A stretch of DNA of 64,000 nt, from IMG/VR virus record IMGVR_UViG_3300037859_000002, positions 1 to 64,000 of that record; one strand, 5' to 3'. The translations under genes and the position numbers were made by a program. Shown piece by piece: positions 1,541 to 53,013 of the stretch (the first letter of the stretch is position 1; each line of letters opens with the position of its first letter). The stretch is from a virus. The notes under the pieces were generated by a model, which was not told the DNA's origin, searched no databases, and worked only from the letters and a program-made list of their open reading frames with translations.

Positions 1541-1576
1541 AGCCTGCGGCACGTTCCGGAATGGTCGCTTGGCGTT

Positions 1577-1653: not shown

Positions 1654-1847
1654 ATCCTTTCAATCAGTTGCCGACATTTTCCAGAAATTCTGGTGCTTCG
1701 TTTTCCAGTCGTTTTCCAGATAGTTTCCGGGCCGGCAGACTATGTGACAATCGGCTGTGCCGACCACACGGCAAGCACACCGACGCCCCGACCCTGCCCG
1801 GGAATTCGTTCCGTTTTCCAGCCAGGGTGGAAAACGCCCGCAAACCG

Positions 1848-2888: not shown

Positions 2889-2922
2889 GACCAGGAGCGT
2901 GGCACAATGAAATGTGGGTGGA

Positions 2923-5333: not shown

Positions 5334-5903
5334 CAGTCGCCGTCCTCACTGTCGGGTTTGCTTCCTTTGCTCGGGCGGATTTTCGCGCTGTCGGGAAGGT
5401 CGATCACCAGGGCCAGCGAGTAGCCGTTCTCGTGGAGTTCGAATTTCATCGGCCAGTCTGGAAACTGCTCATCCTCGTCGAGCGGCGCGACCCCGACGAC
5501 CCAGACGCCGCCGTCGATCTCCTTGGGCGCGTAGGTGCCGAAGACCTGGAGGCCCTGGTTGCCGAAATCCTCGATGACCCAGGCGGCCGTCTCCTGGCCG
5601 ATCTCGTCGCCGCCGCCCCAGCGACCGTCCTTCCATTCGTCATAGGCGAAGTTGTCGTCGGAGTAGCCGTGGAAACGAACGCGCTTGGTCACGGACGGGC
5701 CTCCGCTGCATCCGGGATGATTGGAAGCGAGAAGGCAGCCACGATGCTTCGGGCCATCCACTCGTCGAAGGCGTCCATAAGCTCGGCTCCGGTGATCATG
5801 GGCGCGACCGTCCTCACCTGGATCACGATCGGCTCCGGGAGCGCGGTCGCGGCGACCCCCACCAGGGGAGCCGCCGCGACACCAAGGAGAAGGGTCCGGC
5901 GCC

Positions 5904-7277
5904 TCATGCGCCGTCCCCCTGCTCATCACCCTCACGAGCGTCCAGGCCCTCGCTCTGCGCGATGTAGCGCAGCACCTGGGACGACCAGCTGTCCACCCGG
6001 TTCCAGCCATCGCGGTAGCTGACCCCGTGCTGGTAGGGCGCCACGTTGATCATCCAGGCCAGGCAGTCCCGCCCGGGCGGCGTGACCTGATCGCTCGTCT
6101 GCTCGTCGCTGATGACGATCAGCCGGCGAGGGCCGGTCTCCATCACCGTGCGCACGGCCTCACCGAGGCGGGTGCCGCCGTTGTAGTGCGGCGACTGGCG
6201 GATGGCGTTGAGCAGCTGGAATCCCGAGGGCGGCCGCTCGATCTCCGACACCCCGGTCCCGAACGCGAAGATCCGCGGCCGGTCGCAGAGCTCGCGCGCC
6301 GCCATCGCCACGCCCGCGGCCGCGTGCAGCCGATCCATCTTGGACCGGGCCGACACCGGGGTGCCGACCATCGACCCCGAAACATCGACCAGCACGGCGG
6401 TGGTGCCCAGCAGGCGAGGCAGGCCCGCCAGGGCACGCAACATCGCGGCCTCGAGCGGCACCGCATAGTCGGGCGCGTGCTGCCAGGCGGCCACGAACTG
6501 GAAGGGCCACATGCGCGCGAACTGCGCCTCGTCGATCGCGGCCGCCACCTCGGCGGTCGGAACCCCGGCCTGCTGCAAGTTGCGCAGGTTGCGCACCAGG
6601 GCCAAGCCACCGAGCTTGCGCTCGCGCACCAGCCGCGCCCAGGTCTCGCGCTTGGCATCCGGATCGGAACCGGCGGCCGAGATCGCGACCTCCCAGGTGT
6701 CGGGCACCGGCAGCTCGTCCTTCACGGCCAGGCGCCAGAGCGCAGCCTGCGCAGCCCCGTGAGGCTTCGCGTGGATCAGGCGCAGCAGGTCGCGCAGCCG
6801 GATCGCCGAGCGCGCGTGGTCATACTTCGCCAGCTGGTAGGCATCGAAGGTGCGGAGCGCCGCGGTCAGGCCCCGACGCATGGCGTAGGGCACCGGGCGC
6901 CGGCCGTTCTTGAACCACAGGGCCAGGACCTCGGCCGGCTCGTCGGCGCGACGGAGAACCGCGCCGAGGGCGCGCTCGCCCGCGGCCGGGCGCTTCTGCT
7001 CGAACAGCATGACCGCGAGCCAGAGGGCCGCGTGGCGGATGCCCATCTGGTTGCGTGCCTGCTCGGCGACGGCCACGACCTGGGCGTCGGTGCAGCGCCC
7101 GACCAGATCGGCCAGGCGCTCGGTGATCGCCACCCCCTCCTCGTAGAAGGTGTCCTCCCAGAGCATGCAGGTCATCACCGTGCGACGCAGTTCGTCGACG
7201 GCGCTGGCCCTGGTCGCGGGCGCGCCCTCGTGGGTCACATGCCTGTGGGTGTCGCGGACGGCCGTGTTGGTGCGCAT
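5904..7277 (-). CDS. rsr: Ro60/Rsr TROVE-domain RNA-binding protein with C-terminal vWA
   Basis: LWEDTFYE, FDAYQLAKY, LRDLLRLIHAKP, TWEVAIS, ALVRNLRN, VDVSGSM MIDAS, ISDEQ; start moved to MRTNT. Confidence 0.93.
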   Translation of the reverse strand: MRTNTAVRDTHRHVTHEGAPATRASAVDELRRTVMTCMLWEDTFYEEGVAITERLADLVGRCTDAQVVAVAEQARNQMGIRHAALWLAVMLFEQKRPAAGERALGAVLRRADEPAEVLALWFKNGRRPVPYAMRRGLTAALRTFDAYQLAKYDHARSAIRLRDLLRLIHAKPHGAAQAALWRLAVKDELPVPDTWEVAISAAGSDPDAKRETWARLVRERKLGGLALVRNLRNLQQAGVPTAEVAAAIDEAQFARMWPFQFVAAWQHAPDYAVPLEAAMLRALAGLPRLLGTTAVLVDVSGSMVGTPVSARSKMDRLHAAAGVAMAARELCDRPRIFAFGTGVSEIERPPSGFQLLNAIRQSPHYNGGTRLGEAVRTVMETGPRRLIVISDEQTSDQVTPPGRDCLAWMINVAPYQHGVSYRDGWNRVDSWSSQVLRYIAQSEGLDAREGDEQGDGA

Positions 7278-7340
7278 GATCGCGCTTCCCCCCAAAACAA
7301 GGCGGCCGGCTCCCCCGAACCGGCCTGACATACGCACGAA

Positions 7341-7405
7341 GGGCCGGTAGGGGACGGTTCGGGTCTGGCCTTTTACAAGAAGGAACCCGAGCCTGCGCCA
7401 AGCCC
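7341..7405 (-). ncRNA. Minimal Y-RNA-like hairpin 1
   Basis: GGGCTTGGCG..GGTTCCTTC..ACCGGCCC bulged terminal helix just upstream of ro60; same ends as the YrlA at 54062. Confidence 0.65.
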
Positions 7406-7447
7406 TTATCTGAAGCCGGAGGCCGGAGCCCCCTTGGAGATTCATCG

Positions 7448-7511
7448 CCGCCGGAAAGTATGTTGGACCGGTTTCCTATTTCGAGAAGTAACCGGTCTGA
7501 ACGCCAAGCGG
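7448..7511 (-). ncRNA. Minimal Y-RNA-like hairpin 2
   Basis: CCGCTTGGCG..GACCGGTTACTTC..AACCGGTC..TTCCGGCGG; same architecture as hairpin 1. Confidence 0.65.
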
Positions 7512-7529
7512 TCAGGCTCTATCTCACAT

Positions 7530-7889
7530 CTAAATGTGTTTGGCAAGCGCCTTTCTGTCGACCTCCTTCCATTCGGTGAAGCGCTGCATGCGCTCGCGCA
7601 GGTCGCCCTCGCCATACTTGCGGATCAGGTCCTCGACGCGTTTCCAGTTGGGCTGCGTGTGGGTCCGCTGCTCGATACGAGCGAGGGCGCGCCCGCGCAG
7701 AAACCCATAAGCCAGGCTGGCGGAGCGGGCCTCGCTGCGGACGTCCCGGGTGCGGTGATGATGGAGGCCCCACCAGACGTCGCTGGGGCCACCCCGGCCC
7801 CGGTTGCGATGTCTGGCCTGTTCGGCCCGGATGATCCTGGCCTCGGCGGCCAGGGACATGATCTTGATCTTCAGGTAGACGGTCGACAT
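7530..7889 (-). CDS. Conserved hypothetical phage protein (LKIK..LAAEARIIR..HR..VR.EAR..LAYGFLRG)
   Basis: Good RBS AAGGAG; recognisable phage family of unknown function. Confidence 0.75.
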   Translation of the reverse strand: MSTVYLKIKIMSLAAEARIIRAEQARHRNRGRGGPSDVWWGLHHHRTRDVRSEARSASLAYGFLRGRALARIEQRTHTQPNWKRVEDLIRKYGEGDLRERMQRFTEWKEVDRKALAKHI

Positions 7890-7963
7890 TGGTCGCTCTC
7901 CTTGAGGGTTGCATCGGCGTCAGTCGATGCGGAGAGCGGTGGTGCGCGGGCTTGCTACAGCAT
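7871..7963 (-). promoter_or_regulatory. Leader ORF M-L-amber-Q-A-R-A-P-P (readthrough/arrest peptide candidate)
   Basis: AGAGGA RBS, ATG CTG TAG CAA GCC CGC GCA CCA CCG, then hairpin GCATCG..CGATGC before next RBS. Confidence 0.55.
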
Positions 7964-7983
7964 GGTTCTGGTCCTCTGGTTGG

Positions 7984-8059
7984 TGGCGCCCCTGTCCGGA
8001 ATCGAACCGGCTCCACCGATTTTAGAGATCGGCACCTCTACCATCGAGGCTCCAAGGGC
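7984..8059 (-). tRNA. Amber suppressor-type tRNA (anticodon CTA), Trp-like
   Basis: GCCCTTG/CAGGGGC-G-CCA acceptor, CCGAT-CTCTAAA-ATCGG anticodon arm, CCGG-TTCGATT-CCGG T arm. Confidence 0.8.
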
Positions 8060-25137: not shown

Positions 25138-26639
25138 CAGGTTTCGATCTCCGGTGCGTAGTCTCCGGGGCGTGCAAACATCAGCGCGCCATCGGGCCCG
25201 CGCCACGTTGAAGCGACCGCCGCCAGAACGTTTGTGCCGGCCCGGCCGTCGTAGGCGTTCGGATCGACGCGCAGCTGATACCGTTTCGTGCTGCCATCCG
25301 GCTCGGGGGTCGAGTTGAGCAGGTCGACCATCACGATCACTTCGTCGTCCGCAACCTCGCGGCGGAGCAGGCGCGCACTGCGCAGGCCCTTGATGGGGTG
25401 ATCCGCCGGCGCCTCTGACACGACGGTCGTGCCGGTCTCGGTCAGCCAGCGGGCAAGACCGAAGCGATCAAGCATGACGCGGCGCACCTCTGCGTTGGTT
25501 TCGTCTTCGATGTGCTGCTCCGTCAGCTTCTCCGGCTGCTCGATCACCCAGGCTGGCACGCGCACTCCATGAACCGAATAGAGCGCGGCCCCGTCGCGCC
25601 AGCGGCAGAACGGGCCATCGTCGCGATGGGGGCGATGTTCGCCGTCAACCATCAGGATCTCGGGGCGGTCGCTGATCATGCAGAAGTCGGGGTGCATGAT
25701 GCGCGGTCCGCTGTGCAGGGACAGGGTTTCCCAATGTTCCCAGGCGGAGTAGTCGATAGGCAGGCGCGCAACGTGACGGAAAAAACTGAGATAGCTGTCA
25801 TATGCGGACCACTGATTGCCGCCCTGCCACATCTGCCAGGTGCGCGCAGCGCACTGGATTCCGAAGTCGCCCAGGCCCATGACTTTGGCCAGGGCGCGCA
25901 TGTCGGCGCCGACGAAATACCATTGGGATAGATCGTCTGCGGCCATGGTCGCGACCATGGCCGCGTCCCTGGCCGCGGCCTTCGTCGCGGCCCTGGTCGC
26001 GTCCGTGGTCGCGACCTCGGTCGCCTCCCTGGTCGCGGCCCCGGTCGCGTCCCACGTCGCGGCCGTGACCGCGTCCCTGGTCGCGCGCCACGTCGCGGCC
26101 GTGGTCGCGGCCTCAGTCGCGGCCTCAGTCGCGTCCGTGATCGCGGCATCCGTCGCGTCCGTGGTCGCGTCCCTGGTCGCGGCCTCCGTCGCGGCCTCCG
26201 TCGCGGCCCACGCCGCCGCCTCAGTCGCGTCCGTGGTCGCGTCCGTGGTCGCGGCCCTGGTCGCGGCCCTGGTCGCGGCCCGCGTCGCGGCATTGGTCGC
26301 TGCCGCGGTCGCGACCCTGGTCGCGGCTATCGTCGCGGCCGTGGTCGCGTCCGTGGTCGCGGCGCTGGTCTCAACGTCATCTTTTCTCAGATGCCAGATC
26401 GCCGCCGAGAATCCGCCCGCAAAGGCGAGCGTCATCGGCGACGGCACAAAAACGATGTGCTTCGGCGGCGGAAGCTTTGCCGCGGCGTAGAGCCCGATGA
26501 CCGCGCGACGGCAGATCTCACGATCGGCTTCGGTCATCGCCTTCGTAGACATGGCGTTGGCGATCCACCGATCGCACCAGGGCGCAAGCTGCTCGCGATG
26601 CCCTGGCGTCAGTTCGTATAGAGCCTTGTGCCTGGCCAT
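25137..26639 (-). CDS. DUF6745-like protein with Ala/Thr low-complexity tract
   Basis: ISDRP..HRDDGP..W.DG..VHGVRVP, ETNAEVRR, NSTPEPDG. Confidence 0.8.
   Translation of the reverse strand: MARHKALYELTPGHREQLAPWCDRWIANAMSTKAMTEADREICRRAVIGLYAAAKLPPPKHIVFVPSPMTLAFAGGFSAAIWHLRKDDVETSAATTDATTAATIAATRVATAAATNAATRAATRAATRAATTDATTDATEAAAWAATEAATEAATRDATTDATDAAITDATEAATEAATTAATWRATRDAVTAATWDATGAATREATEVATTDATRAATKAAARDAAMVATMAADDLSQWYFVGADMRALAKVMGLGDFGIQCAARTWQMWQGGNQWSAYDSYLSFFRHVARLPIDYSAWEHWETLSLHSGPRIMHPDFCMISDRPEILMVDGEHRPHRDDGPFCRWRDGAALYSVHGVRVPAWVIEQPEKLTEQHIEDETNAEVRRVMLDRFGLARWLTETGTTVVSEAPADHPIKGLRSARLLRREVADDEVIVMVDLLNSTPEPDGSTKRYQLRVDPNAYDGRAGTNVLAAVASTWRGPDGALMFARPGDYAPEIET
25946..26366 (-). 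repeat. Degenerate 12-nt tandem repeat encoding xxAT
   Basis: (GTCGCG(G/T)CCnnn)n. Confidence 0.85.
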
Positions 26640-31690: not shown

Positions 31691-32457
31691 CGTGCGTTCC
31701 CTTTCACGACGATGTCCACATATCACACTCAGATGTGTCAGAGGTCAAGCCCAAAAAGCAACAGGGGGCGTCACCCTGGATCAGGATGACGCCCCCTGCG
31801 TGGCTGGCGCCGGCGCTACAGGATCAGCACCGCCGCGAGCAACCAGACGGCCGTACCCACGGCGGCGCCCATGGTCTCGACCAGGGCGCGACGCCAGCGC
31901 CGCGCCGTCTCCAGGGCGCGGACGCCGGCCAGACGGAATACGCGCATCGCCTCCTCCTCGGATTGCCCATCCCTACATTGAGATGGTTCAGGAATATGGA
32001 GATGAGCGGAAACGACAACAGGGCCCCCCGTCGAATTGACGGAGGAGCCCTGTTGCTCATACCACTTTCACGTGCCTGTAGGCCCGCTCCAACCACTCCT
32101 CGGCTGCGGTCAGCAGATGATGGCGGTAGCGGTAACTGCCCACGGCATCCCGAGCCTGCTGGCCGGTCGTGCCGTTGAGCATGATCAGGCTGGTGGGCGG
32201 GTAGTCCGCGTAGGGTCGGGCCAGCAGCTCGCGCCACCCGACGTGAAACCAGATGATCGCCCCCGAAAGCCGATCGCCGAGCGCGCGCTCCACCAGGCGG
32301 AGGGGCAGCGGCATCAGCGTCCGGATGTTCGTCTCGGGCAGGTCGACCAACAGGATGTCGGTGCTGGTGTCGATCATGCGCTGGATCGCGACCAGGAAGT
32401 GGGCGGGATCGTCGTCGGATCCCAGACGCACGGTCATCAGTTCAACGTTCATGGTGT

Positions 32458-32532
32458 CTCCACTGATCACGCGCCCCGTGTGGGCGCGAGGCACGACCCA
32501 CCCGGATGGGGGTGGGCCGGCCTTTCGTGGAG
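32458..32532 (-). ncRNA. Hammerhead ribozyme type II (G3-C8 covariant)
   Basis: CTCCAC-GAAA-stemIII-TC-GCGCCC/GGGCGC-GTGATCA-GTGGAG. Confidence 0.8.
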
Positions 32533-32533
32533 C

Positions 32534-33703
32534 CTAGGCCTTGGCCATCAGGTCGCCCGCGCGGCGTTCGAAGGCCACGCGTTCGTCCTGATAAGGGATG
32601 GTCCGCGCGTGCGCGGTCATGCCCTGCACGACGTCCCAGATAGACGTCATCGGGTGCCCCTCCTCGCGGAGAACGGTCTCGATGATGTCTTTGGTGGTCG
32701 GCTTCGGCAGGCCGAGCTTCTTGTGCAGAAACTCGAAACGCTGATCATCGTCCTTGGCGACAACCGTTGCCTTGGCGTCGATGACCTTGCTGGTCACCGC
32801 GTTCGCCGCGGTGTGGGCAAAGCTCTCGATCTGGGGCTGTACCTCGTGGATGAACCGGTCGGGTGCACCGCTCGTGTGACGGATAGTGATCGACTTGTGG
32901 TTCTCGGTGCCCCAAAGGCAGCGGTTCTGACAGACGGCGCGCAGATACATCGTCTGGATGTTCAGCGCTCGGCTTCCGGTCTCCGAATTGGAGACGATGA
33001 TGCCCGGGAACAGCAGGTCCGGCTGTCCGTCGGGGAGTTTGCCGACCTCGATCGGGAACTGATCGCGGCACAGGAAGATGAAGACATCGCGGTCCGAGGC
33101 GTACAGTGTGGTCGTCGCCTTGGTGACATCGACGTTGGGGTTGTAGGTCATCCGGCCCCAGTCGATGACGCCCGGCACCTTCCAGCTTTCGTCGAGACGC
33201 TCGTTGATGGCGCGGGCCACATCCAGGTCGAGGATGCGGCCATAGCCCGGGCTGGTGGCGGCTCGCAGCTGATCCGGCCCGCCCGCCTGATCTTCCTGCC
33301 AGAAGAGCTTCAGCACCTCGGCCGGGCTTTTGACCAGGCCATGCTGAAGACAGAGCCCGGAAAGAAAGGCCGGGATCTTGCGCAGGTAGGCGGCGGGCGA
33401 CTGGGTCCAGGTGCAGAGCTGCCCGAAAGCCCAGTGCGTCATCTGCATCTGGGCTCCACCGTCACGCTCGAGCAGGAGCGTATGGTTGTCGTCCGGGTTG
33501 GCGCTGACGCGCAGCTTCTTCGACTCGAAGGTGTTGGTTCGCGACAGGTCGGTCCGGTCGTGGAGGCTCGAGATGAGCGCATCCATCGACAGGAATTTCT
33601 GGTCATCAGGTCGTGAGAACCATTGCTGGCTCACGCTGGTGTTCAGGCTGCCGCGGGAGGCGGTGACAGCACGTACCCCAACGAGTGTGGTGTCAGTGTT
33701 CAT
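32534..33703 (-). CDS. DUF932 family protein
   Basis: QWFSRPDD, HWAFGQLC, LYASDRDVF, SNSETG, RAVCQN, IRH. Confidence 0.85.
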   Translation of the reverse strand: MNTDTTLVGVRAVTASRGSLNTSVSQQWFSRPDDQKFLSMDALISSLHDRTDLSRTNTFESKKLRVSANPDDNHTLLLERDGGAQMQMTHWAFGQLCTWTQSPAAYLRKIPAFLSGLCLQHGLVKSPAEVLKLFWQEDQAGGPDQLRAATSPGYGRILDLDVARAINERLDESWKVPGVIDWGRMTYNPNVDVTKATTTLYASDRDVFIFLCRDQFPIEVGKLPDGQPDLLFPGIIVSNSETGSRALNIQTMYLRAVCQNRCLWGTENHKSITIRHTSGAPDRFIHEVQPQIESFAHTAANAVTSKVIDAKATVVAKDDDQRFEFLHKKLGLPKPTTKDIIETVLREEGHPMTSIWDVVQGMTAHARTIPYQDERVAFERRAGDLMAKA

Positions 33704-33749
33704 CGGTAGCTCCTTGTTGGGTGCGGCGGGTGGCGCGCCCAGGGGTGAT

Positions 33750-33833
33750 CCCGCGGCGCCGCCCACACAACCATGTGGTTGTGGGGCGCGCGCTTCGGCC
33801 GCCCCCGGGGTTGGGGGCGCCTCGTCAGGCGGG
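33750..33833 (-). ncRNA. Hammerhead-like type I (GAAG/CC variant)
   Basis: CCCGC-CTGACGA-stemII-GAAG-stemIII-CC-GCGGG; upstream stop TGA lies in core. Confidence 0.55.
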
Positions 33834-34193
33834 TGGTGCGCTCCGCTTCAGGATCTTGTCGGCGTTCCGGAGGAAGTGCGTTTTGTTGTTCAAGAAGGGA
33901 GTGAACAGGTCCTCGCTCTGACTCTCGGTAAGGCCAAAGAACTTGGCCAGCCTGGGGTCATCGCATCCGTAGATGGACCGACCGTCAATCTTTGGGACCT
34001 TGGAAGGCCGGATAAGGGTCAGGCCCTCGGCTTGCATTTCGGGCGTAAGGCCCGCATGGCCGATGACACAGCCAACGGTGCCGCAGCCTCCTTCAACCCC
34101 GAAACGGTAGATCCAGGTGCTCATCCTGACCTGGTCTTCGGGTATGCCGTCGATCAGGTCGCGCACGAATTTCAGTCTCTCGTAGGGTGTCAT
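33825..34193 (-). CDS. CGxxxCxxGH family protein, paralog 1
   Basis: CGTVGCVIGHA..PEMQAEGL. Confidence 0.75.
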   Translation of the reverse strand: MTPYERLKFVRDLIDGIPEDQVRMSTWIYRFGVEGGCGTVGCVIGHAGLTPEMQAEGLTLIRPSKVPKIDGRSIYGCDDPRLAKFFGLTESQSEDLFTPFLNNKTHFLRNADKILKRSAPPA

Positions 34194-34203
34194 TTCGTGT
34201 TTC

Positions 34204-34254
34204 CCTTTCGCCGCTGCTGGCGGCTCATCAGCTCGCACGCGGTGTGCGAGAAGG
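34204..34254 (-). ncRNA. Hammerhead ribozyme type III
   Basis: CCT-T-CTCGCAC/GTGCGAG-CTGATGA-GCCGC/GCGGC-GAAA-GG. Confidence 0.8.
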
Positions 34255-34931
34255 CCCGGGGGCGGTGCCCCGGGGGCTCAGTCTTCGGCTGTTAGCGGTC
34301 GGTCCGCGTCATTCCAGGCACTCAGAGCGCTCATGAAGGCCCCGTGGGTCTCCAGGGCCCTGCCCTCGGGCTGGTGGCGCATCTCGCTCGCACCGCTCGA
34401 GAATTCTTCGACCAGGTCCGCCGACCAGGCGGCCTCTGCGTCCAAGACGCTCTGGTAGAGCGGATGCCGCTCTTTCGGCGCTTCCGGTCTGGCGTATTCC
34501 TCGGCTTCGAGTTGCTTCGCGATGACGAGTGTCTGCGCGGGCGTAACCTCAGAGCAGAGGTATTCATCCAGCGCGGTCTGGGCCAAGAGGCACGCCAAGC
34601 TGAGTGGGCACCGGGTCTCCACCGATCCCGGCAGGGATGCCTGCACGAGTTGGAGTGCCCGCGTGGCGCGCGCGACCTGCAGGAGGTCGTTGATGTCAGG
34701 ATCCAGGTTGCTCATTGAGGGAGCCCCAGATTCGCTTTGTCGACGAAGATGCGTACTTTCGGATCCAGCCGATACACATGCACGTCGAGCATGCCATCGT
34801 CCTGGCGGCGGAAACTGATCAGGCCGCCAAGGCCGGTCTTGCGATCGGTGAACTCAACGATGCGCTCTCTCGACTTGTCGGTGAAACTATCGGCCTGACA
34901 CTTCGTCAATACGAGAGGTCTTGGCATGGTC

Positions 34932-34992
34932 TTGCCTTTCGCGCGCCCGGTCTGGGGCGCTCATCAGCGCACATTTATATGTGCGAAGGCAA
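34932..34992 (-). ncRNA. Hammerhead ribozyme type III
   Basis: TTGCCT-T-CGCACAT/ATGTGCG-CTGATGA-stemII-GAAAGGCAA. Confidence 0.9.
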
Positions 34993-35587
34993 TGCCCCCA
35001 GGGCAAGGTCCCCGGGGGCATGGATCAGCGGGCCGGGATCTTGCCCTTGTGGGCCTCGACCCGTCGGCGGATCGTTGACGCAAGCTCCGCGTACTCGCGG
35101 TTCACGGTCGCGGTCGCGTCGTTCAGCACCTGGTCGTCGGTCGGGCACTGGATGCTCGCCGTCGCCGGGTTCTGCTCGAGATACTGCGCCAGGGACACCC
35201 GCTGCTCATAGGCCATGCAGGTCATGCTGGCCCAGATGAAGAGCCGGCCCAGCCCCTCAGGGAGCGGGGCCTCCAAGCCTGGTGCATACAGGGCGCAGCA
35301 GATCTCCGCGGGGGCGCAGATCCAGGGCCGGAACCCGTAAACGATTTCCAGCCGCTGCGCGCGCACCTGTTTCGGGATGAAGGGCGGAATGTCCTTCTCC
35401 CAGCCGCCGCCGGGCTGGATGATCACGGGCCCGGTGACGTAGTGCTGATCGGCCTTGCTGAGGCCGGCGATGCCCATGGCTTCGTTGAGCTGCAACAGGA
35501 AGGCGGCGCTCATGCCCATGTGGGCCATGGCGCTCTGCAGTCGCAGGACGTCCATCGACATCGGCGTCTGCTGTGGTTTCATCGGAG

Positions 35588-35659
35588 TGATCCTCATCAG
35601 CGCCGGCGGATCGCCGGCCGAGCTCGCGGCCGCACGCGGCGGCCGGAGCTTTCGGATCA
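35588..35659 (-). ncRNA. Hammerhead ribozyme type II
   Basis: TGATCC-GAAA-stemIII-TC-stemI-CTGATGA-GGATCA. Confidence 0.85.
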
Positions 35660-36031
35660 GTCTTCAACAGGCTCTTCGAGCAGTCGGTCCATCAGAGCGA
35701 GCTGCCGGGCCTTGGTCAGTTCGGAGGTGCGGTCATTTTCGATGTAGAACAAGGTCCGTGCCGCGGCCTCACTGATGCCAAAGAATACGGCCAGGGCCGT
35801 GTCCGTAGCGGTCCACCCATGAAGGGTAAGGAGCCGCTGCGGGGACAGCTTCAGTCCTTCGGCTTGAAGGACCGGATCCATGCCGCCGTGGCCGGCGATG
35901 CAAGCCACGGTGCCGCAAACGGATTGCCACTTGTTCATGTCGATCAACATGGCCGGCGTCTCGGCAATGATCTCGCGGAGGCGGGCGAGACGCTGCCGCG
36001 GCCTCAGGCTTGGAATGGTTCCACTTCCCAT
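35657..36031 (-). CDS. CGxxxCxxGH family protein, paralog 2
   Basis: CGTVACIAGHG.DPVLQAEGL. Confidence 0.75.
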   Translation of the reverse strand: MGSGTIPSLRPRQRLARLREIIAETPAMLIDMNKWQSVCGTVACIAGHGGMDPVLQAEGLKLSPQRLLTLHGWTATDTALAVFFGISEAAARTLFYIENDRTSELTKARQLALMDRLLEEPVED

Positions 36032-36035
36032 CGGG

Positions 36036-36107
36036 TGATCCTCTTCATGGGGATGATTCCCCGACCGTTCCCCCTGAGTCAAAGCCCAGGGGGCCGGTTT
36101 CGGATCA
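36036..36107 (-). ncRNA. Hammerhead-like type II (A3 variant)
   Basis: TGATCC-GAAA-stemIII-GTC-GGGGA/TCCCC-ATGAAGA-GGATCA. Confidence 0.7.
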
Positions 36108-36600
36108 GTAGCCATTGCCCACTTCGGTGACGTGGGCGTGCCGCACGTCGTTGGGGCTGAGCTCGACCGCCGCGCGGTCGCGCAGGTGGTCGAGCATATC
36201 GGCCCAGACGCGGCTGGACGGATCGTCCATGCCGGCCTCTGCCAGGTCGGCGGCCTTGACCCGGTCGGGAGCCTCGATCGTGGTGGTGAAGCGCAGGACC
36301 GTGGTGAGCGTGACATCGATGGTCACCTCGTGCCTGGTCTTTGTCGTCCCCGCCACGATCTGCGCGCACAGTGCCTCGAAATCGAGGCGGTCGAGCATCT
36401 CGTCCCCAGCCTGGTAGGCGCGAACGATGAGGACCCTGTTGTCGGACAGCAGGGTCGTCGGGACCGCGCCGGTCTTGGCCCTGAGATAGGCCGCGACCGG
36501 CGCCTCGGTTCCGTCGCTCATGCGCGCCAGGTAGGTCTTGAGGTCCATCGCCGACGGGCAGTTGCTCTCGTCGACGACGGTGACGTCGTAGTTCATGGGA

Positions 36601-36669
36601 TGAGCTCCTCTGGTCCGTTATTGGACGAGGCGGGCGCCGCCCATCGGGCGACGGCGCGCCTTTCGCTCA
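36601..36669 (-). ncRNA. Hammerhead-like type II (A4 variant)
   Basis: TGAGC-GAAA-stemIII-TC-GTCC/GGAC-CAGAGGA-GCTCA. Confidence 0.7.
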
Positions 36670-37376
36670 CTCCTCTCGACCATGGTGCAGCTCGTGCTGC
36701 AGCAGGTCGCGATGGTGCAGGTACTCCGAGTGGTGGGCCTCGAGGATTGCGTCGCTGGCGACGAGCCTGATGTTGTTGCCCAGGCCGGCGCGCTGATCCA
36801 GCAGCAGCTGCTGCAGGCAGGCGAGCAGGTCGAAATCGACGTGCTCGCTCTGCTTCGACGCCCGGGACCAGGCGGTCATGCGCGCCTTTGCCTCCTCGGC
36901 GGAGGAGGCGCGCACAAACACCGGGTAGGTGAACTCGGGGAGCTGCAGGGTGGCGGTGACCGCGTAGAGGCGTTCACCCCCTCTGAGCTGGCCGAGCAGG
37001 CCCTCGGTGGCCCTGTTTTGCGGCACGGCCTCGAAGGGCCGGTCGCCGTGCTCGGGGTGATCGTCGATCGCGCTCATGTTTGCGATCGAGGCGATCGGGT
37101 CGGGGTTGTCGTCGTCGCCTTCCCTGGATGTCCAGTCGGTACCCCGGAGCATACGCCAAACCTGGCGGAAGCTGGGGTCTGCCATGGTGTCTGGCGCGAC
37201 GCTCATTTGTCGGCCGTCATGGGTGGCGACGAGGACCGGGTCCCCGGTGGCGGTGGCGTTGATCACCGCGAGCTTCTCGCGCGCGGTGGCCGCCAGTGCG
37301 ATCGCCTTGTCGAGATCGACGTACTCGAAATCATCGGGCCCGTCCTCGAAGGCGATGGTGCAGAGTTCCATGCGGT

Positions 37377-37444
37377 CCTCTTGTCAATGAGCGGGATTGC
37401 TCATGAGCGCCAGGCCCCGCATTGGGGGCCTGGGGCTTTCGAGG
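37377..37444 (-). ncRNA. Hammerhead-like type II (U3-A8 covariant)
   Basis: CCTC-GAAA-stemIII-TC-stemI-TTGACAA-GAGG. Confidence 0.6.
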
Positions 37445-37944
37445 GTCAGCGTGGCTTGGGCGCCTTGCGTGGCTGGCGCCTGGGCGCCGAGCGACGAAGG
37501 AGCGGGGGCCAGCCCGGGCTCATGGTCCGGGATGGCTGGGCGAGCCGCGTGGCCAGCCGGATGGGCTGGCTCAGTCGCAGCGTCGGTGGTCGGTCTGGGT
37601 CCATGGGTGACCTCATCGGCGGCGCGGGATTGCGCCGGAGCGCCTGGGCGCTTTCGGTCACATCTCTGATATGGGGATTGGCCCGCTCGGGTGCAACCGC
37701 GATTCCATGGTTGTGGAATCAGTGGTGGAGGCGTAGGGTCTGCGTCTCGCCCAAAGAGGCGACGGCCCCGGTTTGAACGCCCGGGGCCGTCCATATCTCG
37801 GGCCGGAGCGACATCCGGCGGCGAGCGCGCTGGCCCAGTAGACGCTGGGCTTGGCCCATACATATTGCGTGTGGACCGGGCGTGCAAGTGAAAATCTGGT
37901 ATCAGGCCGCGTCTACGGCTCACATTTAGATGTGAGGTGCTGCC

Positions 37945-38991
37945 GTGAACGTCTCGTACATCAATTTCGTCGCCACGGGCTGGGCCTGGGCGCAGCCGAC
38001 CGCGAATGCTGGGGCCAAGCTGCTGCTGCTGGCCCTGGCCGGCCACGCTGACCCGTGGGGGAGCGCCCGCCCGGCGCTGCCCCGGTTGCAGGCGCTGACC
38101 GGGCTGTCGCGCTCCGGTCTGTTCAAGGCCATGGCCGAACTCGAAACCCTGGGCCTGATCAAGAAGCGCTCGGGCGGCGGGGTCGTCAATGAATACATTC
38201 TCAAGTGGGATGGGGAGCCCGGCCCGTTCGTGGTGCTGACCGAGCCTGCGGCACCCGTCCCCCCAGTGGACGGGGGGGTCCGCCCAGTGGACGGGCCTCC
38301 CCAGAGTGAACGGGTCCACTCGGTGGACTCACCCCGTCCACTCGGTGGACTCCACCCGTCCACTCGGTGGACTCAACCCGTCCACTCGGTGGACTCCACC
38401 CGTCCACCCAGTGCACCCGAAGATATTAGAGAAGAGATAAGGGAAGAGATAAGGGAAGAGATTAGGGAAGAGAACAACAGCGCGCGTGCGCGCGCGACCA
38501 CTCTCGCGGGGGCGCCCGAACCCGCCGCCGGTCCCGCGGTGACACCCCCTGCCGCTGAGGAGGTCTGCGACGCGACCAGTACCCCGGAAAAACCGCGAAG
38601 GTCAAAGATTCCTAGTCGCGTGCCTTCGGGCGACCTGCCGGCCGAATGGCTCAGCGCAGCCAACGCCGGTCGCGCCAAGCTCGGCCTCCCCGAAATCGGC
38701 GCCCGCGAGGCCATCGCCCGATGGCTCAACTTCCAGGCCTTCTGGGAGGGCGTCACCGGCCCCAAGGGCCTGAAGGTCGACTGGCGTCGCTGCTGGCTCG
38801 AGGGTGCGCGCAACCCCAAGGCCGACCACCACTACGAGGATTTCGCCCAGCCCGACGCTGAGGAGCCGCCGGCGCCGCGGACCGACCACCAGGCGGACGC
38901 CGAGTTCCTGACCGATCCTGAATTCGGGGCCCGCAACCGCGCCAAGCTCGCGCTGCTCGAATCCCTGGTCGCCGGGAGGTCCCGCCTGTGA
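37945..38991 (+). CDS. Phage replication initiator (N-terminal HTH)
   Basis: KLLLLALA.HAD..P.L..L..TGLSRS..LE.LGLI; internal iterons; precedes primase-helicase. Confidence 0.8.
   Translation: MNVSYINFVATGWAWAQPTANAGAKLLLLALAGHADPWGSARPALPRLQALTGLSRSGLFKAMAELETLGLIKKRSGGGVVNEYILKWDGEPGPFVVLTEPAAPVPPVDGGVRPVDGPPQSERVHSVDSPRPLGGLHPSTRWTQPVHSVDSTRPPSAPEDIREEIREEIREEIREENNSARARATTLAGAPEPAAGPAVTPPAAEEVCDATSTPEKPRRSKIPSRVPSGDLPAEWLSAANAGRAKLGLPEIGAREAIARWLNFQAFWEGVTGPKGLKVDWRRCWLEGARNPKADHHYEDFAQPDAEEPPAPRTDHQADAEFLTDPEFGARNRAKLALLESLVAGRSRL
38314..38470 (+). repeat. Iteron-like 22-bp repeats (GTCCACTCGGTGGAC core) plus A-rich 12-bp repeats; probable origin
   Basis: Cores at 38314, 38336, 38358, 38380, degenerate 38402; then (ATAAGGGAAGAG)-like x4. 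Confidence 0.75.
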
Positions 38992-40853
38992 CGGCACTCG
39001 ACCTGCACGCGGCCCTCGATCGCGAGGGCATCCGGATCCCCGCGACCACGCCGGGCAAGACCTTCGATGCGCTGTGCCCCCGCTGCAACGGCGGTCGCGC
39101 CCGGGAACGGAACTTCCGGGTCACGATCGACGACGACGGCAAGGGCGCCGTCTGGCTCTGCAACCGGGCGAACAACTGCGGTTGGACCGACAGCGTCCGC
39201 ACCGGCCCCCGGGATCCGAGTGCGCCGCGCGCGCGCAAGGACCGGGCCCCGCCGGTAAAGCCCGAACCGATCCCGCCCGAGCAGCAGGATCGGCGCCTGC
39301 CGCTCTACGCCTGGTGGGCCAGGCGCCGGATCTCGGCCGAAACCGTGGACGCCCTGGGCGTGTTCACGACGTCCATGCGGTTGCCGCGTTTCGATGCCGA
39401 GGGGCGCCCCGTGCTGGATGACCAGGGCAAGCCCGTCTGGCAGGACCAGGAGGCCATGGTGTTCCCCTACGTGCACCACGGCGAGGTCGTGAACCACAAA
39501 TACCGCTGGTCGCCCAAGAAATTCCGCCAGGATCGACACAGCCGGCGCACGCTCTTCAACGCCGACAGCCTCGAGGCCGACGATCTGGGGATCATCGTCG
39601 AGGGTGAGGCCGATGTGCTGGCCCTGTGGGAGGCCGGGTACCGTCAGGTCGTCTCCCTGCCCGATGGGGCGCCCCCCCGGGTCAGCGACACCTATGACCC
39701 GGAGAATGACGATGACGACCGGTATGAGGCGCTGCGGACCGAGGAGCGCTTCCAGCGTCTGAAGCGCATCGTCATCGCCGTCGATACCGACGACGCGGGC
39801 CGGGCGCACGCCGAGGAGATCGCGCGCCGCATGGGCAAGGAGCGCTGCTGGCTCGTGGAGTGGCCCCGCAAGGACGGGGGCGACGTGCTGCGCGAGCTTG
39901 GGCCCGAGGCCGTGCGTGCCGCGGTCGAGGGCGCGCGACCCTATCCGATGCCGGGCATCCTCGATGGGCGGGCCCTGGGCGAGCGCGTGGCCGCCGAGCG
40001 CCAGGGCCAGCGCGATACCGGCTATGCCTGCGGGATCGACGATCTGGATGGCCTGTTCCGGTTCTCGCGCGAGGAGGGCACCTTCGCGGTCGTCACGGGC
40101 GTGCCCGGCTACGGCAAGACCGTGACCACGATCGCCTACTCCGTGTTGTTGGCCGAGCAGGCTGATGCGCGGGGCGAGCCCTGGCACACGCTGATCTGCT
40201 CGCCCGAGATGCGGGCCGTCGATCTGGTGAAGAACATCGTCGCGGCCAAGGCGCGCCAGCCCTTCTACGATGGCAAGAGCGGCCCGGGCATTGCCCCCGA
40301 GGACCTGCCGGCGCTGATGGACTGGGTCAACGCGCACTACACGTTCCTGGAGCCTGACGATGCGGCCGATGATCCGACGCTCGACTGGATCATCGAGTGT
40401 GTGCGCCTGTCGCATCGCCGGAACCGGACCAGGCTGGCGATCATCGATCCCTGGAACGAGATCGAGATCGGCTACCCGCCCGACAGGAGGATGACCAACG
40501 ACGAGTGGATTGCGAAGCAGTTGCAGCGGATCCGCAAGCTCGTGGTCGAGCTCGCCTGTTCGGTCGTGGTGGTCGCCCACCCGAAGAAGATCGAGCGCGA
40601 GAAGAAGGGGGGTAAGCTCAGGGTGCCGACCGGCTACGACATCGCCTACTCGGCGGGCTGGAACAACAAGCCCCAACTGGGGATCACCGTGCACCGGGCG
40701 GAGCACGACAAGACCGACGAGCTGGAGTTTCACGTCTGGAAGGCCAGGCAGGGTCATCTGTCGAAGCGCGACAAGGTGGTCGTGCGGTTCAGCCCGGTGA
40801 CCAAGCGGTTGCTGCCCAAGATGACTCCGGTCGCCTATGGCGCGGTCGGATAA
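38988..40853 (+). CDS. Twinkle/T7 gp4-like primase-helicase
   Basis: CPRC zinc finger, TOPRIM EGEAD and DTD, GVPGYGKT, IDPWN, VAHPKK. Confidence 0.92.
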   Translation: MTALDLHAALDREGIRIPATTPGKTFDALCPRCNGGRARERNFRVTIDDDGKGAVWLCNRANNCGWTDSVRTGPRDPSAPRARKDRAPPVKPEPIPPEQQDRRLPLYAWWARRRISAETVDALGVFTTSMRLPRFDAEGRPVLDDQGKPVWQDQEAMVFPYVHHGEVVNHKYRWSPKKFRQDRHSRRTLFNADSLEADDLGIIVEGEADVLALWEAGYRQVVSLPDGAPPRVSDTYDPENDDDDRYEALRTEERFQRLKRIVIAVDTDDAGRAHAEEIARRMGKERCWLVEWPRKDGGDVLRELGPEAVRAAVEGARPYPMPGILDGRALGERVAAERQGQRDTGYACGIDDLDGLFRFSREEGTFAVVTGVPGYGKTVTTIAYSVLLAEQADARGEPWHTLICSPEMRAVDLVKNIVAAKARQPFYDGKSGPGIAPEDLPALMDWVNAHYTFLEPDDAADDPTLDWIIECVRLSHRRNRTRLAIIDPWNEIEIGYPPDRRMTNDEWIAKQLQRIRKLVVELACSVVVVAHPKKIEREKKGGKLRVPTGYDIAYSAGWNNKPQLGITVHRAEHDKTDELEFHVWKARQGHLSKRDKVVVRFSPVTKRLLPKMTPVAYGAVG

Positions 40854-41360
40854 CACACACAGATGTCTTTTCTGGCCTTGGCGCCACATTCAAGTGTGTC
40901 TATCATGCGCAGATGCTGGTTCTGGTTCTGGTGCTGATCTGCGTGCCCGCCCCGACAGACGGGGAGCGCGAGCTCGCCTGTCGATCCGAAATGAGCGAGC
41001 CCGTGGCCAGTGCCGAGACCTGGGTCAGCCTGCGAAAAGCCCGCCTTGGCCCCGACGAGGTGCTGATCCGCCAGGCCGTGGTGGCCGAGGCGGGTGCCGA
41101 GCCCGCTCCGGCTCGTCGGCGGAGGCCCTGATGCTCGATGGTTGGGAGGTCGGTGACCGGGTGTGGTCGACCACGTCTGGGATCCGTGGGGTCATCACGG
41201 GCCGTGAGGGCCAGCGCCTGATGGTGCTCTGGGAGGGCTACGAGAACGCCTTGCCCGCCTATGCTGGGCACCTTCGGCCCGATCGTGGGGAGCTCTTTCT
41301 CGCCCGGTCGGCGGCTTTGGGGGTGACCCGGCTGCCATCGCCGCAGGCCCGGGTGCGCGG

Positions 41361-50284: not shown

Positions 50285-50854
50285 GCGTCGTGGCCGTTTG
50301 CTGGGGCGCCATGGTGCGGACCAGTCGCTGGCGCAGGGCCTCGACCCTGTTCCAGGCCGTCCAGTCGGTGGCCTGGCTCTGGGTCGCCACCTGCTGACCG
50401 TAACTGGTCAGCGCCGTGATCAGCGTCAGCAGCTCGTCCTCGTCGAGGGCGATGTTCATGCGCGGGGCGCCGCCAGGTAGCGTGCGATCCGAACGGCCGA
50501 CTGCTCGTCCAGCCAGTCCAGGAGCTGGGCCTTCATCAGGTCCGCCACCGGGCCATCGTTGAGTTCGGGACGCTGCTCGCGCAGGCTTTCGGCCAAGCGG
50601 CGCCACGAGCTGGGCTGCAGGGTCAGGCCCTGCTCAGCGAGCGCGGCGCGAATGTCCGCGGTGCAAAGCAGGACGTGGCCCAGCCGGACCGCGAGTTCCT
50701 CGAGCAGGGCCCGGCCCTCCTCGATGGTGGGCTCGCGACCGAAGGTCGCGCACCAGATGCGCGCGCAGATTTCGGCGATGTCGGCCGCCCGATCGCGGAG
50801 CGTGCGCTCGGGCGCGGCCTCGAAGACGGATTGTTCCTCCATCGGAGTGGGTCC

Positions 50855-50919
50855 TCTCGTTTCGCGCCCACGAACCGGCGGGCGCTCGTCGGCGCCTCTC
50901 ACATGAGAGGCGAACGAGA
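50855..50919 (-). ncRNA. Hammerhead type III (C4 variant)
   Basis: TCTCGT-T-CGCCTCTC/GAGAGGCG-CCGACGA-stemII-GAAACGAGA. Confidence 0.75.
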
Positions 50920-51573
50920 TACACTTAAATGTGGTGAGCCGGGAGTCAAATGGAAAGGCCCCCCACCCGGAAAAGGGTAGGGGGCCTTGCGCGCGAGGGT
51001 CAGGCGCGGCGCATCTGGCGCAGACCCTCGCGGGTCGACCTGGCGCCGCCGCAGATGGCCCGATGGGCCACCGCGGCTGCGGCTCTGGTGCGCCGAAGCA
51101 TCTCCTGCTCGTCGAGCTTGATCTCGCCGGTCAGGCTGTCCTGCAGGTCCTGCAGGGTATCGCGGGCCGCGGCCAGCGCATCGCGCACATAATCGGGCTG
51201 CTTGGGCATGGTATGTGCTCCTGGCCCCGGCTGCCTCTTCGGCACAGGATGGGGGCCCACATCGCTGTGGATGCACGCCGCGGCTCCTTCCTCGCGGGAG
51301 GGGCGCGCGCGCGCATTTCGATCAGCCGCGCTCGGTGCGCGCGGTCCGGCTCGGATCATCCGGATCTGCGGCTTCGAAGGCGCGGTGGTCATAGGTCGTG
51401 GTCTCGCCCTGCTCGAGGTCCCAGTCGACGCCAAACTCATCATCGGCGGCGATCCTGACCGCCTCTTCGACGGTGCGGGCCATGACGATGCCCGTGTGAC
51501 AGAGACACTGGTCGACATAGCGGTGGACCACGAATTCTCGCTCCGGTGGGTCGGCGCTCATGCGCGCGTTCCT

Positions 51574-51629
51574 CCCTTTCGCCGGCGGCTGGCCGGCTCG
51601 TCAGCCCCCACCAGGTGGTGGGGAAAGGG
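51574..51629 (-). ncRNA. Hammerhead ribozyme type III
   Basis: CCCT-T-stemI-CTGACGA-GCCGGC/GCCGGC-GAAAGGG. Confidence 0.87.
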
Positions 51630-52161
51630 GCCGCCCCCCGCAGGGGGCGGTCGTCAGTCCCGTCGGTCGATCCAGTAGCGCGGCACCCGATGATCGGGTG
51701 GGAAGCCGAAGCTCCCATCCTGCTCGAGGGTGACCACGATGGTCTCGGGGGTCTCGATCGCGACGGTGTCGACCACGACGAGCTCGAACTGGAATGTCGT
51801 GTTCGTGCTGTCGGCGTCGGCGTAGCGGTCGCCCGCGAGGTCGATGACCGACCCCGGTGTGAGGTCGGCCACCCGAACCATTTCGGGCGCGATCATCCTG
51901 TGCGATCCCATCCTCCGGGATGGCCAGGACGTGGGGTGATCATCGTCACCCTGGGGCGTCGGCGCCGCCACTCGTGCAGCGCCAGCAGCCCGTAGAAGGT
52001 CGTGGCCGCGGCGCCTGTCGTCAGCGCCGCGGCCCACATGATCTGCTGCACCGTCGGGTCGTCCTCGAAGATGAGGAACACGCCGGTCGCGGCAAAGATC
52101 ACGCCGGCGACTCCGCTGATGCCCAGCAGGGCAAAGCCGAGAAGTCGGTACATGGGTCGTT

Positions 52162-52219
52162 CCCTTTCGCCGGCATGCTGGCCGGCTCATCAGTCCGCCC
52201 CATCAGGGAGCGGAAAGGG
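52162..52219 (-). ncRNA. Hammerhead ribozyme type III
   Basis: CCCT-T-TCCGCTCC/GGGGCGGA-CTGATGA-GCCGGC/GCCGGC-GAAAGGG. Confidence 0.9.
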
Positions 52220-52506
52220 CGACGCGCCCGCCCCAGCCTTGGGGCCAGAGCGGGCGCGCGTCGTTGGTTTCAGGCCGCCAGGGCTTCGTCAGAGGGCGGG
52301 GTCGCCCTGCTGGACTTGCGCCACTCGTAGACCGCACCTGCCACGCAGGTGACGGCCATCAGGGCGTTGACCGCGATGTTGAGGCCCGGTACCAACATGG
52401 TGCCCGCGCGCATCATCGGGAGCCAGGCAATGGCCAGGCCGGTGAAGCCCACCGCCGAAGCGGCGTAGATGCGGGCGTTCATTTTGTTGCTGGTCATGAT
52501 GTGTTC

Positions 52507-52561
52507 CCCTTTCGCCGCAGACTGGCGGCTCATCAGGCCCCACACGCTGTGGGGTCGAGGG
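52507..52561 (-). ncRNA. Hammerhead ribozyme type III
   Basis: CCCT-C-stemI-CTGATGA-GCCGC/GCGGC-GAAAGGG. Confidence 0.87.
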
Positions 52562-52837
52562 TGGGTGCCCCCACACAGGGGGCACCCAACAGGAAGATCA
52601 CGCGGCCTGCTCCAGGGCCTTGTCCTGGGGCTTGCCCAGGTAGCGGGCCGCCACGTTGGCGCCCACGGCGACAACGACGCCCCCGACCGCGATGGCGCCC
52701 AAAACGGGCGCCGTCATCGGAACCAGCGGCAGCAGCAGCACCGCCAACCGGTAGCCCGCCAGACCAGAGGTCAGCAGGCCCGCGGTCTCGGCCACGGCAG
52801 CGATCTTCTTCGTGTTGAAGGTCATCGGATCGATCTC

Positions 52838-52914
52838 CTGAGTGATGATGCGTTCGCCCCTTGCCAAAGGGGCCTCGTCAGCCGGGCTCATTGGCTACCC
52901 GGTCGCACACTCAG
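52838..52914 (-). ncRNA. Hammerhead-like type III (GAAC/GA variant)
   Basis: TGCG-A-CCGGG/CCCGG-CTGACGA-GCCCCTT/AAGGGGC-GAA-CGCA; outer CTGAGTG/CACTCAG. Confidence 0.55.
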
Positions 52915-53013
52915 AATCGTCGTTGACATACCGTATGTGGTGATTCTCCACATATATTCAACCACTTAGGCGCAGAAAAGCTCCGAAAATGCACCGAAAA
53001 TGGTCGATCCCAC

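Follow-up and report, generated by a model that had tools for sequence, protein, structure and literature searches.

What do hammerhead-like RNA folds accomplish when they recur at one gene junction after another in a phage genome? IMG/VR virus record IMGVR_UViG_3300037859_000002, a 111,211-bp provirus record with a G+C content of 67%, raises this question in its first 64 kb, the stretch that we refer to as the window; the biology of self-cleaving ribozymes in bacteria has been described as "largely elusive" in a 2019 review (PMC6765202). An earlier sequence-only reading of the window described about 22 hammerheads of types I, II, and III, 8 in one leftward array of small genes and 14 in another, and proposed that they chop a polycistronic early transcript into single-gene RNAs. 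We find 21 hammerhead or hammerhead-like elements at 32458-52908, with 9 in the first array (array A) instead of 8 and 12 in the second (array B) instead of 14, and 30 in the whole record, which holds a further array (array C) outside the window (Table 1). All of them lie on the minus strand; for arrays A and B, this is the coding strand, just as had been claimed. We think it probable that the elements belong to the hammerhead ribozyme family (types II and III) and that they process the transcripts of three small-gene prophage operons, serving as built-in insulators.

To make the inventory, all minus-strand junctions were inspected, candidates were folded by minimum free energy (MFE), and the folds were then parsed by hammerhead numbering. 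The window holds 11 type II copies, 9 type III copies, and one doubtful type-I-like copy, A8, and the record holds 18 of type II; A8 was left out of the parsed set, which consists of 29 copies of the record. The earlier claim that all three types are present holds for types II and III but is not supported for type I, for which the Rfam model (RF00163) has no match in the arrays and for which A8, with G15.1-C16.1 in place of A-U, is the only copy of the right topology. A candidate near 46244 has a CUGAAGA motif but no hammerhead fold. We also set aside a match to the twister-sister model (RF02681) at 37394-37466, which scores 22.5 bits against a gathering score of 34 and covers a stretch that aligns as the type II variant A2, and we regard the matches to Rfam microRNA, small RNA, and internal ribosome entry site families in the region as chance, arising from GC-rich repeats or hairpins.

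The elements share the cores of the hammerhead family, as the sequence-only reading had described, but the exact CUGANGA/GAAA/UH consensus is found in only 13 of the 21 window copies, the other 8 having one or two core changes. Across the parsed copies, the core strand C3 U4 G5 A6 N7 G8 A9 is exact in 19 of 29, and its deviations include the single changes C3A (three times), C3U, U4C, and U4A and the paired double changes G3-C8 and U3-A8. These double changes show C3 and G8 covarying, in A9 and A2, respectively, and U3-A8 covariation is known in natural hammerheads (Perreault 2011, PMC3088659). GAA (G12 A13 A14) is present in every copy, while A15.1-U16.1 and G10.1-C11.1 are each kept in 28 of the 29; the core strand of B1 is exact but its 15.1-16.1 pair is C-G, and A8 likewise combines an exact core strand with a changed 15.1-16.1 pair. 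The nucleotide at the cleavage site, H17, is never G; 23 copies have C there, 5 have U, and 1 has A. The 1.1-2.1 position, adjacent to the cleavage site, is G.G or G.A in 6 of the 29 copies and unpaired in 3 (A2, B7, and the array C copy C6). Stem II of B5 is irregular, with a G-C pair followed by tandem G.A/A.G. The sequence AAUC(C/A) is frequent in loop I, as is an initial CAG in loop II of type III copies, and these recurring sequences hint at a possible conserved contact.

We then asked how often such elements would be found by strand and composition alone. A strict descriptor was used that requires exact CUGANGA, GAAA, U16.1, and an H17 other than G, in all three permutations, with two closed stems of -4 kcal/mol or lower and 3 bp or more in the open stem. 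Its 15 matches over the record are all on the minus strand, with none on the plus strand, compared with a mean of 0.35 and a maximum of 2 in 40 dinucleotide-preserving shuffles. With the Rfam hammerhead models applied to both strands, the matches are all on the minus strand and all intergenic, but all are below the gathering score, and a search in gathering mode returns tRNAs and no hammerhead. In E-value mode over the 111-kb record, RF02276 gives 13 sub-threshold matches at E<=1, including a cluster at 107-110 kb; those at 48436-48508 (31 bits), 50210-50283, 48753-48825, and 35584-35657 each show a complete CGAAAC...GUC...CUGAAGAG core in the alignment. RF00008 gives 4 type III matches in the record, on the coding strand. 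We also built our own covariance model (CM), R1, from six canonical type II copies only. It finds all 12 remaining type II copies, and its 22 best matches are all on the minus strand, with E-values of 3e-10 for C6, 9e-8 for B5, and those listed in Table 1 for A1 to A4 and A9. A CM match at 4101-4163 was rejected, as it lies within coding sequence and has no core.

The stems were said to differ in sequence from copy to copy and still pair, and this is borne out by measures of pairing, for which CM alignment and junction-anchored numbering were used instead of MAFFT alignments of the type II and type III copies, which were structurally poor. When 15 type II copies are aligned with the CM, standard pairs make up 91.2% of cells, versus 72.3% after shuffling and ~40% with slid partners, and 14 of 20 pairs are changed on both sides; 0 of 500 shuffles reach any of these measures. 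By junction-anchored numbering of the 29 copies, pairing is 83-100% at positions 2-3 of stems I-III and at positions 4-5 of stems I and II, and 76% at position 4 of stem III, with 2-5 pair types per position. Pairing within a copy is 94%, versus 47% when partner strands are swapped between copies, and 0 of 2000 permutations are as high.

The elements are placed at gene junctions in a systematic way, as had been proposed. Gene boundaries were set from frames rich in G+C at third codon positions and from whichever start codon came first downstream of an element. On this basis, every gene gap of more than 10 nt holds an element, with a single exception at ~50.9-51.0 kb, where the only long gap without a ribozyme has instead a weak terminator-like hairpin followed by a promoter-like stretch. 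The junctions that have no element are overlaps or near-overlaps (34715/34712, 51896/51893, 50459/50456, and 49463/49447, and a 5-nt gap near 51320). The proposed products would therefore not all be RNAs of a single gene, since the overlapping pairs and the pair with the 5-nt gap would stay dicistronic.

The two topologies are fitted to the flanking genes in different ways. In all 18 type II copies of the record, the stop codon of the upstream gene (17 TGA and 1 TAG) starts between -5 and +1 nt from the 5′ end of the ribozyme, which places it within or directly beside the 5′ strand of the open stem II. In 17 copies, a start codon follows 2-11 nt past the 3′ end, C4 having no downstream open reading frame (ORF). 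In A1, for example, the TGA is within stem II and the ATG is 2 nt past the element. For type III, the stop codon is 12-53 nt upstream of the ribozyme and the start codon 4-14 nt after it. Taking both types together, 26 of 27 copies have the start codon 2-14 nt past the 3′ end; only B1, in the 5′ leader of array B, departs from this, with a distance of 22 nt. The best site for pairing with the 3′ end of 16S rRNA, that is, the best anti-Shine-Dalgarno (anti-SD) site, is 4-10 nt before the start codon, and in 22 of 27 copies part or all of it falls within the open helix, on its 3′ strand. In type II, the SD sequence GAGGA falls over G8 A9 and 10.1-10.3, and in type III, AAAGGG falls over A13-15.x. 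Array C repeats this arrangement of stop codon and SD sequence.

Each type III copy with a gene upstream is separated from the stop codon by a GC-rich hairpin; these hairpins have free energies from -11.7 to -36.2 kcal/mol and, relative to random segments of equal length, z scores from -2.2 to -5.1. When the predicted cleavage products are folded, both topologies are found to give equivalent ends in 28 of 29 copies, B1, which has no upstream gene, being the exception. The predicted upstream product ends in a hairpin of 8-18 bp, which is stem III in type II and the extra hairpin in type III, and in a tail that is 1 nt long in type II and 3-6 nt long in type III, and the predicted downstream product begins 0-2 nt ahead of the stem I hairpin. 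The extra hairpin of type III thus sits where that topology would otherwise leave none, and on the folded models this suggests that cleavage, and not mere folding, is the activity under selection, which is our strongest argument.

We propose that most copies would cleave themselves after H17 during or shortly after transcription, so that long transcripts would become one-gene messages, or two-gene messages where genes overlap. The upstream product would end in the 8-18-bp hairpin with its 1-6-nt tail and a 2′,3′-cyclic phosphate, and the downstream product would begin with a 5′-OH and the stem I hairpin. After cleavage, the two products would be joined solely by the 3-6-bp open helix, and melting of this helix would free the ribosome-binding site. 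In this way, the ribozymes may insulate, stabilize, and license the individual cistrons by giving each uniform protected ends and a standard leader with no need for host RNases. Copies with an altered core may cleave slowly or never, which could reflect either tuning of expression or decay.

Several observations weigh against this proposal. Of the 13 window copies with an exact core, 5 are mispaired or unpaired at 1.1-2.1, and 8 of the 21 window copies are changed at catalytically important positions (C3A, C3U, U4C, U4A, or a 15.1-16.1 pair other than A-U). Perreault 2011 rejected candidates with a 1.1-2.1 mispair (PMC3088659), whereas 9 of our 29 parsed copies have such a defect. No tertiary contact between stems I and II was identified in the copies. 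No copy reaches the Rfam gathering score, the best being 31 versus 37 bits for RF02276 and 23.5 versus 48.5 for RF00008, although this score is a curated cut-off rather than a biological criterion. All of the covariation is among paralogous copies of one genome, some of which are identical or nearly so, and our searches found no orthologous locus. Finally, it is a prediction made from the sequence that the genes are transcribed as long polycistronic RNAs, that these are cleaved, that the products are stable, and that the ribosome-binding site becomes unmasked.

A more specific version of the proposal, which we offer tentatively, is that the arrays combine host-RNase-free mRNA maturation with a licensing of translation. 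The ribozyme core would double as the ribosome-binding site, translation would be efficient only after the cut and the melting of the helix, the two topologies would have converged on equal protected 3′ and 5′ ends, type III through its extra hairpin, and the core variants together with the purine-purine 1.1-2.1 mispair might set cleavage and expression gene by gene. With two topologies and graded core variants, the locus repeats one design ~30 times within the same genome, as a set of natural replicates, and the overlapping gene pairs that have no ribozyme are internal controls. The regularities described above, namely the stop codon in stem II, the ribosome-binding site in the joining helix, and the type III hairpin, turn "processing" into testable predictions about RNA stability and translation.

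Among the other explanations, the one that survives best, though we consider it unlikely, is that the folds are mainly translational devices in which cleavage is secondary or lost. The ribosome-binding site would be hidden until a ribosome terminating at the UGA in stem II melts the helix and re-initiates, which would couple neighboring genes. The stop codon in or next to stem II in every type II copy and the SD sequence within the open helix in most copies are what such a device would show, and the many core changes and 1.1-2.1 mispairs would weaken catalysis yet spare the fold. However, CUGANGA, GAA, U16.1, and an H17 that is not G are kept far beyond the needs of a masking hairpin, two copies preserve the C3-G8 pair by double changes, and in type III the stop codon is outside the ribozyme, 12-53 nt away and behind a hairpin.

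It is less probable still that the elements act at the level of DNA, as portable cassette boundaries whose short homologies serve to duplicate and shuffle gene-plus-ribozyme modules, with RNA cleavage as a by-product. B8 does have an identical copy in array C at record positions 109625-109695, A4 shares 93-95% identity with two array C copies at 107.4 and 110.1 kb, and paralogous genes adjoin such copies, but a role in DNA leaves the strand specificity, the catalytic core, the compensatory stems, and the fixed stop and start spacing unexplained, and it is compatible with the ribozyme explanation instead of replacing it.

We give very little credence to a cut-and-ligate scheme in which the RtcB ligase encoded at the start of the record rejoins the hammerhead products into circular or re-spliced RNAs. 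The 2′,3′-cyclic phosphate and 5′-OH ends made by hammerheads match the substrates of RtcB, and ligation or circularization was raised as a possibility, but not detected, in Perreault 2011 (PMC3088659). Against this, the gene is at least 30 kb from the arrays, on the opposite strand, and adjoins tRNA genes, an integrase, and a Ro60-like TROVE/vWA gene, a neighborhood that fits an RNA-repair module; RtcB may lie outside the prophage, and the stems show no sign of pairing between successive products. Chance resemblance of GC-rich hairpins or terminators to hammerheads, for which one could point to the abundance of stable hairpins in a genome of 67% G+C and to the Rfam scores, is refuted by the strand and shuffle controls and by an invariant core amid covarying stems in elements that are all intergenic, and its probability is negligible.

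The reading of the elements as transcript-processing ribozymes has a clear precedent. Perreault 2011 described clusters of hammerheads of mixed type that flank genes in prophages and proposed that they process long transcripts to mRNAs of operon or gene length; clusters from C. scindens, A. caulinodans, and A. tumefaciens were cleaved in vitro, in tandem, in transcripts of ~2 kb, and the triple A. tumefaciens cluster was also cleaved in E. coli (PMC3088659). Like those clusters, the arrays here have several hammerheads within a few kilobases on the coding strand, flanking individual genes or small gene blocks in a prophage context. The arrangements tested there had 2-3 ribozymes in ~2 kb, compared with 21 in 20 kb here and 30 over the whole record, at all non-overlapping junctions, and the present arrays embed a stop codon and a ribosome-binding site, whereas Perreault 2011 makes no mention of ribosome-binding sites, stop codons, or translation. 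The elements resemble the Rfam families Hammerhead_II (RF02276) and Hammerhead_3 (RF00008) in core, three-helix junction, and permutation, and they align over the full length of the models, but in addition to scoring below the thresholds, they differ in stem III, which is long and bulged in type II copies and 3-6 bp in type III copies. The pseudoknot reported for many type II members was not found in these copies, and a search for a covarying pseudoknot between loop I and the tail or flanks gave no signal. Three type II hammerheads of D. vulgaris cleave in vivo, as seen by cyPhyRNA-seq from their 2′,3′-cyclic phosphate and 5′-OH ends, and they too are bacterial type II hammerheads near hypothetical and phage-like genes; they lie at three separate loci and not in an array, and the text examined describes no link to stop or start codons (PMC8782182). 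The sequence-only reading knew of no description at this density, and we found none of arrays of this size in the literature that we examined. Prophage hammerhead clusters and the idea of transcript processing had already appeared in 2011, for groups of 2-3. Three features of the present arrays go beyond the literature examined: junctions are saturated with elements, a stop codon and a ribosome-binding site are built in, and a hairpin compensates for the type III topology.

Synthetic biology uses ribozyme insulators to which this locus is a natural parallel. In RiboJ-type synthetic insulators, a hammerhead placed before the ribosome-binding site strips away the upstream context and gives a standard 5′ leader, as the natural arrays would also do, and a separate hairpin exposes the ribosome-binding site. 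RiboJ is engineered, while the elements described here are natural, occur at every junction, and have the ribosome-binding site inside the ribozyme's own open helix.

Element density is ~27 per 100 kb across the record and far higher inside the arrays, and it is exceptional against the background of 80 viral contigs that share a DUF932 gene and of the five nearest records. The 80 viral loci that share the DUF932 gene of array A (958 kb) have 6 isolated descriptor matches, and Rfam gives 0-1 weak matches in the five nearest full records. Protein searches of viral contigs with two array proteins as queries found nothing, and motif scans found nothing in viral contigs or metagenome contigs; a motif scan of genome contigs gave 10 matches that we attribute to chance, as none of them folds. 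Terminase relatives are at most 41% identical. As no close phage relative was found, orthologous junctions could not be compared. Within the window itself, the descriptor scan and our own CM find no hammerheads in the other modules.

Table 1. Elements, hairpins, terminators, and neighboring genes of the hammerhead arrays (window positions unless marked as record positions; CM, score with our own model R1)
Feature	Position	Strand	Description
Array A	37661 down to 32458	minus	9 copies in 5.2 kb (A1-A9)
A1	37607-37661	minus	type II, core CCGAUGA (U4C); CM 33.2 bits, E 5e-6, non-seed; MFE three-way junction
A2	37375-37446	minus	type II variant, core UUGACAA (U3...A8 double change), unpaired A after C17; CM 18.9 bits, E 0.023
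A3	36600-36670	minus	type II, core CAGAGGA (U4A); CM 22.9 bits, E 0.002
A4	36036-36107	minus	type II, core AUGAAGA (C3A); CM 36.4 bits, E 8e-7
A5	35588-35659	minus	type II, exact core, G.G at 1.1-2.1; RF02276 21.6 bits, descriptor match
A6	34932-34992	minus	type III, fully canonical; strict descriptor match
A7	34204-34254	minus	type III, fully canonical; strict descriptor match; RF00008 16.6 bits
A8	33750-33833	minus	doubtful type-I-like three-way junction, CUGACGA + GAA, G15.1-C16.1 replacing A-U; MFE fold
A9	32458-32532	minus	type II, core GUGAUCA (G3...C8 double change, 3-8 pair kept); CM 17.8 bits, E 0.041; MFE fold
Array B	52908 down to 46459	minus	12 copies in 6.5 kb (B1-B12)
B1	52848-52908	minus	type III-like, 5′ leader of array B, C15.1-G16.1, site GA; RF00008 17.8 bits; MFE fold
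B2	52507-52561	minus	type III, canonical core, bulged A in stem I; RF00008 20.3 bits
B3	52162-52219	minus	type III, fully canonical; strict descriptor match; RF00008 23.5 bits
B4	51574-51629	minus	type III, fully canonical; strict descriptor match
B5	50214-50284	minus	type II, exact core; RF02276 22.7 bits; CM 40.1 bits, non-seed
B6	49758-49830	minus	type II, exact core, G.A at 1.1-2.1; descriptor match, CM seed
B7	49191-49262	minus	type II, exact core, unpaired U after C17; CM seed
B8	48757-48827	minus	type II, exact core, G.G at 1.1-2.1; RF02276 19 bits, descriptor match
B9	48440-48510	minus	type II, fully canonical; top Rfam match, RF02276 31 bits, E 0.003-0.01
B10	47921-47976	minus	type III, canonical core; descriptor match
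B11	47316-47378	minus	type III, exact core, G.A at 1.1-2.1; descriptor match
B12	46459-46514	minus	type III after last array B gene, core UUGAAGA (C3U, U.G wobble with G8); MFE hairpin + three-way junction
Array C	record 106990-110750, outside window	minus	9 copies: 7 type II, 2 type III
GC-rich hairpin before A6	34993-35024	minus	dG -24.5 kcal/mol, z -4.7
GC-rich hairpin before A7	34255-34277	minus	dG -14.5 kcal/mol, z -3.7
GC-rich hairpin before B2	52562-52597	minus	dG -25.7 kcal/mol, z -3.9
GC-rich hairpin before B3	52220-52269	minus	dG -36.2 kcal/mol, z -4.2
GC-rich hairpin before B4	51630-51653	minus	dG -20.6 kcal/mol, z -5.1
GC-rich hairpin before B10	47977-48005	minus	dG -21.1 kcal/mol, z -3.9
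GC-rich hairpin before B11	47379-47397	minus	dG -11.7 kcal/mol, z -3.7
GC-rich hairpin before B12	46515-46548	minus	dG -25.6 kcal/mol, z -4.4
Weak terminator-like hairpin, then promoter-like stretch	50959-50977	minus	only long gap without ribozyme
Strong intrinsic terminator downstream of array A	31761-31799	minus	18-bp stem, then T run
Terminator-like hairpin + T run, end of array B transcript	45960-46000 (approximate)	minus	sequence inspection; not flagged by pattern scan
RtcB RNA ligase gene	1-1407	plus	runs off record start
Two tRNA genes	1464-1650	plus	
Tyrosine integrase	1848-2888	minus	
Ro60-like TROVE+vWA protein	5904-7445	minus	
Weak tRNA-like match	7987-8059	minus	40.9 bits; possible YrlA-type Y RNA

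The arrays are part of a provirus whose gene content includes an integrase, ERF and YqaJ recombinases, a primase-helicase, a large terminase, and a portal protein. The array genes encode proteins of 52-389 aa, nearly all of which have no family match in Pfam or PHROGs; the exceptions are DUF932/phrog_1362 and phrog_889, together with weak matches to DUF3846, DUF6332, and RusA- or clamp-like (beta-clamp-like) families. Array A heads leftward from an iteron-like repeat region (38.26-38.42 kb) that adjoins a rightward primase-helicase gene, and downstream of it on the same strand are the YqaJ and ERF recombination genes and then, far to the left, the integrase. By analogy, its position resembles that of the accessory part of a lambdoid early-left operon, and the "early" expression assumed by the sequence-only reading is plausible from the position of array A upstream of the YqaJ/ERF genes and integrase. 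Array B is divergent from the packaging module (terminase and portal genes, 56-62 kb). No strong intrinsic terminator was found inside array A or B, and strong terminators follow each array. Array C reaches the right end of the record, where its final ORF is cut, and may extend further.

Each array has one copy of a phrog_889-like paralogous gene, at 35657-36031, 49828-50208, and record positions 109693-110094, with 71-80% DNA identity, and each copy adjoins a type II ribozyme. That this holds in all three arrays suggests that the arrays grew by duplication of gene-plus-ribozyme cassettes. Motifs resembling promoters or operators (ATATGTGG...CCACAT and CACATNT...GTGT) are found on the minus strand upstream of array B (52925-52960), at the break within array B (~50900-50940), and downstream of array A (~31700-31740), and they may bind one common regulator. 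From B12 to the terminator, ~470 nt on the minus strand (45990-46458) have no convincing ORF, and if B12 cleaves, this stretch would become a separate RNA with a 5′-OH end.

Some further features of the window were noted. The iteron-like direct repeats at 38255-38420, between array A and the primase-helicase gene, are ~22 nt long (GAGTCCACCGAGTGGACGGGTG and similar); they may mark an origin or operator region, and they cause spurious Rfam microRNA matches. The region at 1-8059 looks like an Rsr/Y-RNA/RtcB RNA-repair module at the edge of the prophage and may partly be host flank. Short tandem repeat blocks with 72-86% identity by self-BLAST, several with shifts of 36 or 72 nt, are present at 41480-43560 within and between plus-strand ORFs, and the gene for a DUF6745 protein has internal tandem repeats at 25934-26370, with shifts of ~72-108 nt and 74-80% identity.

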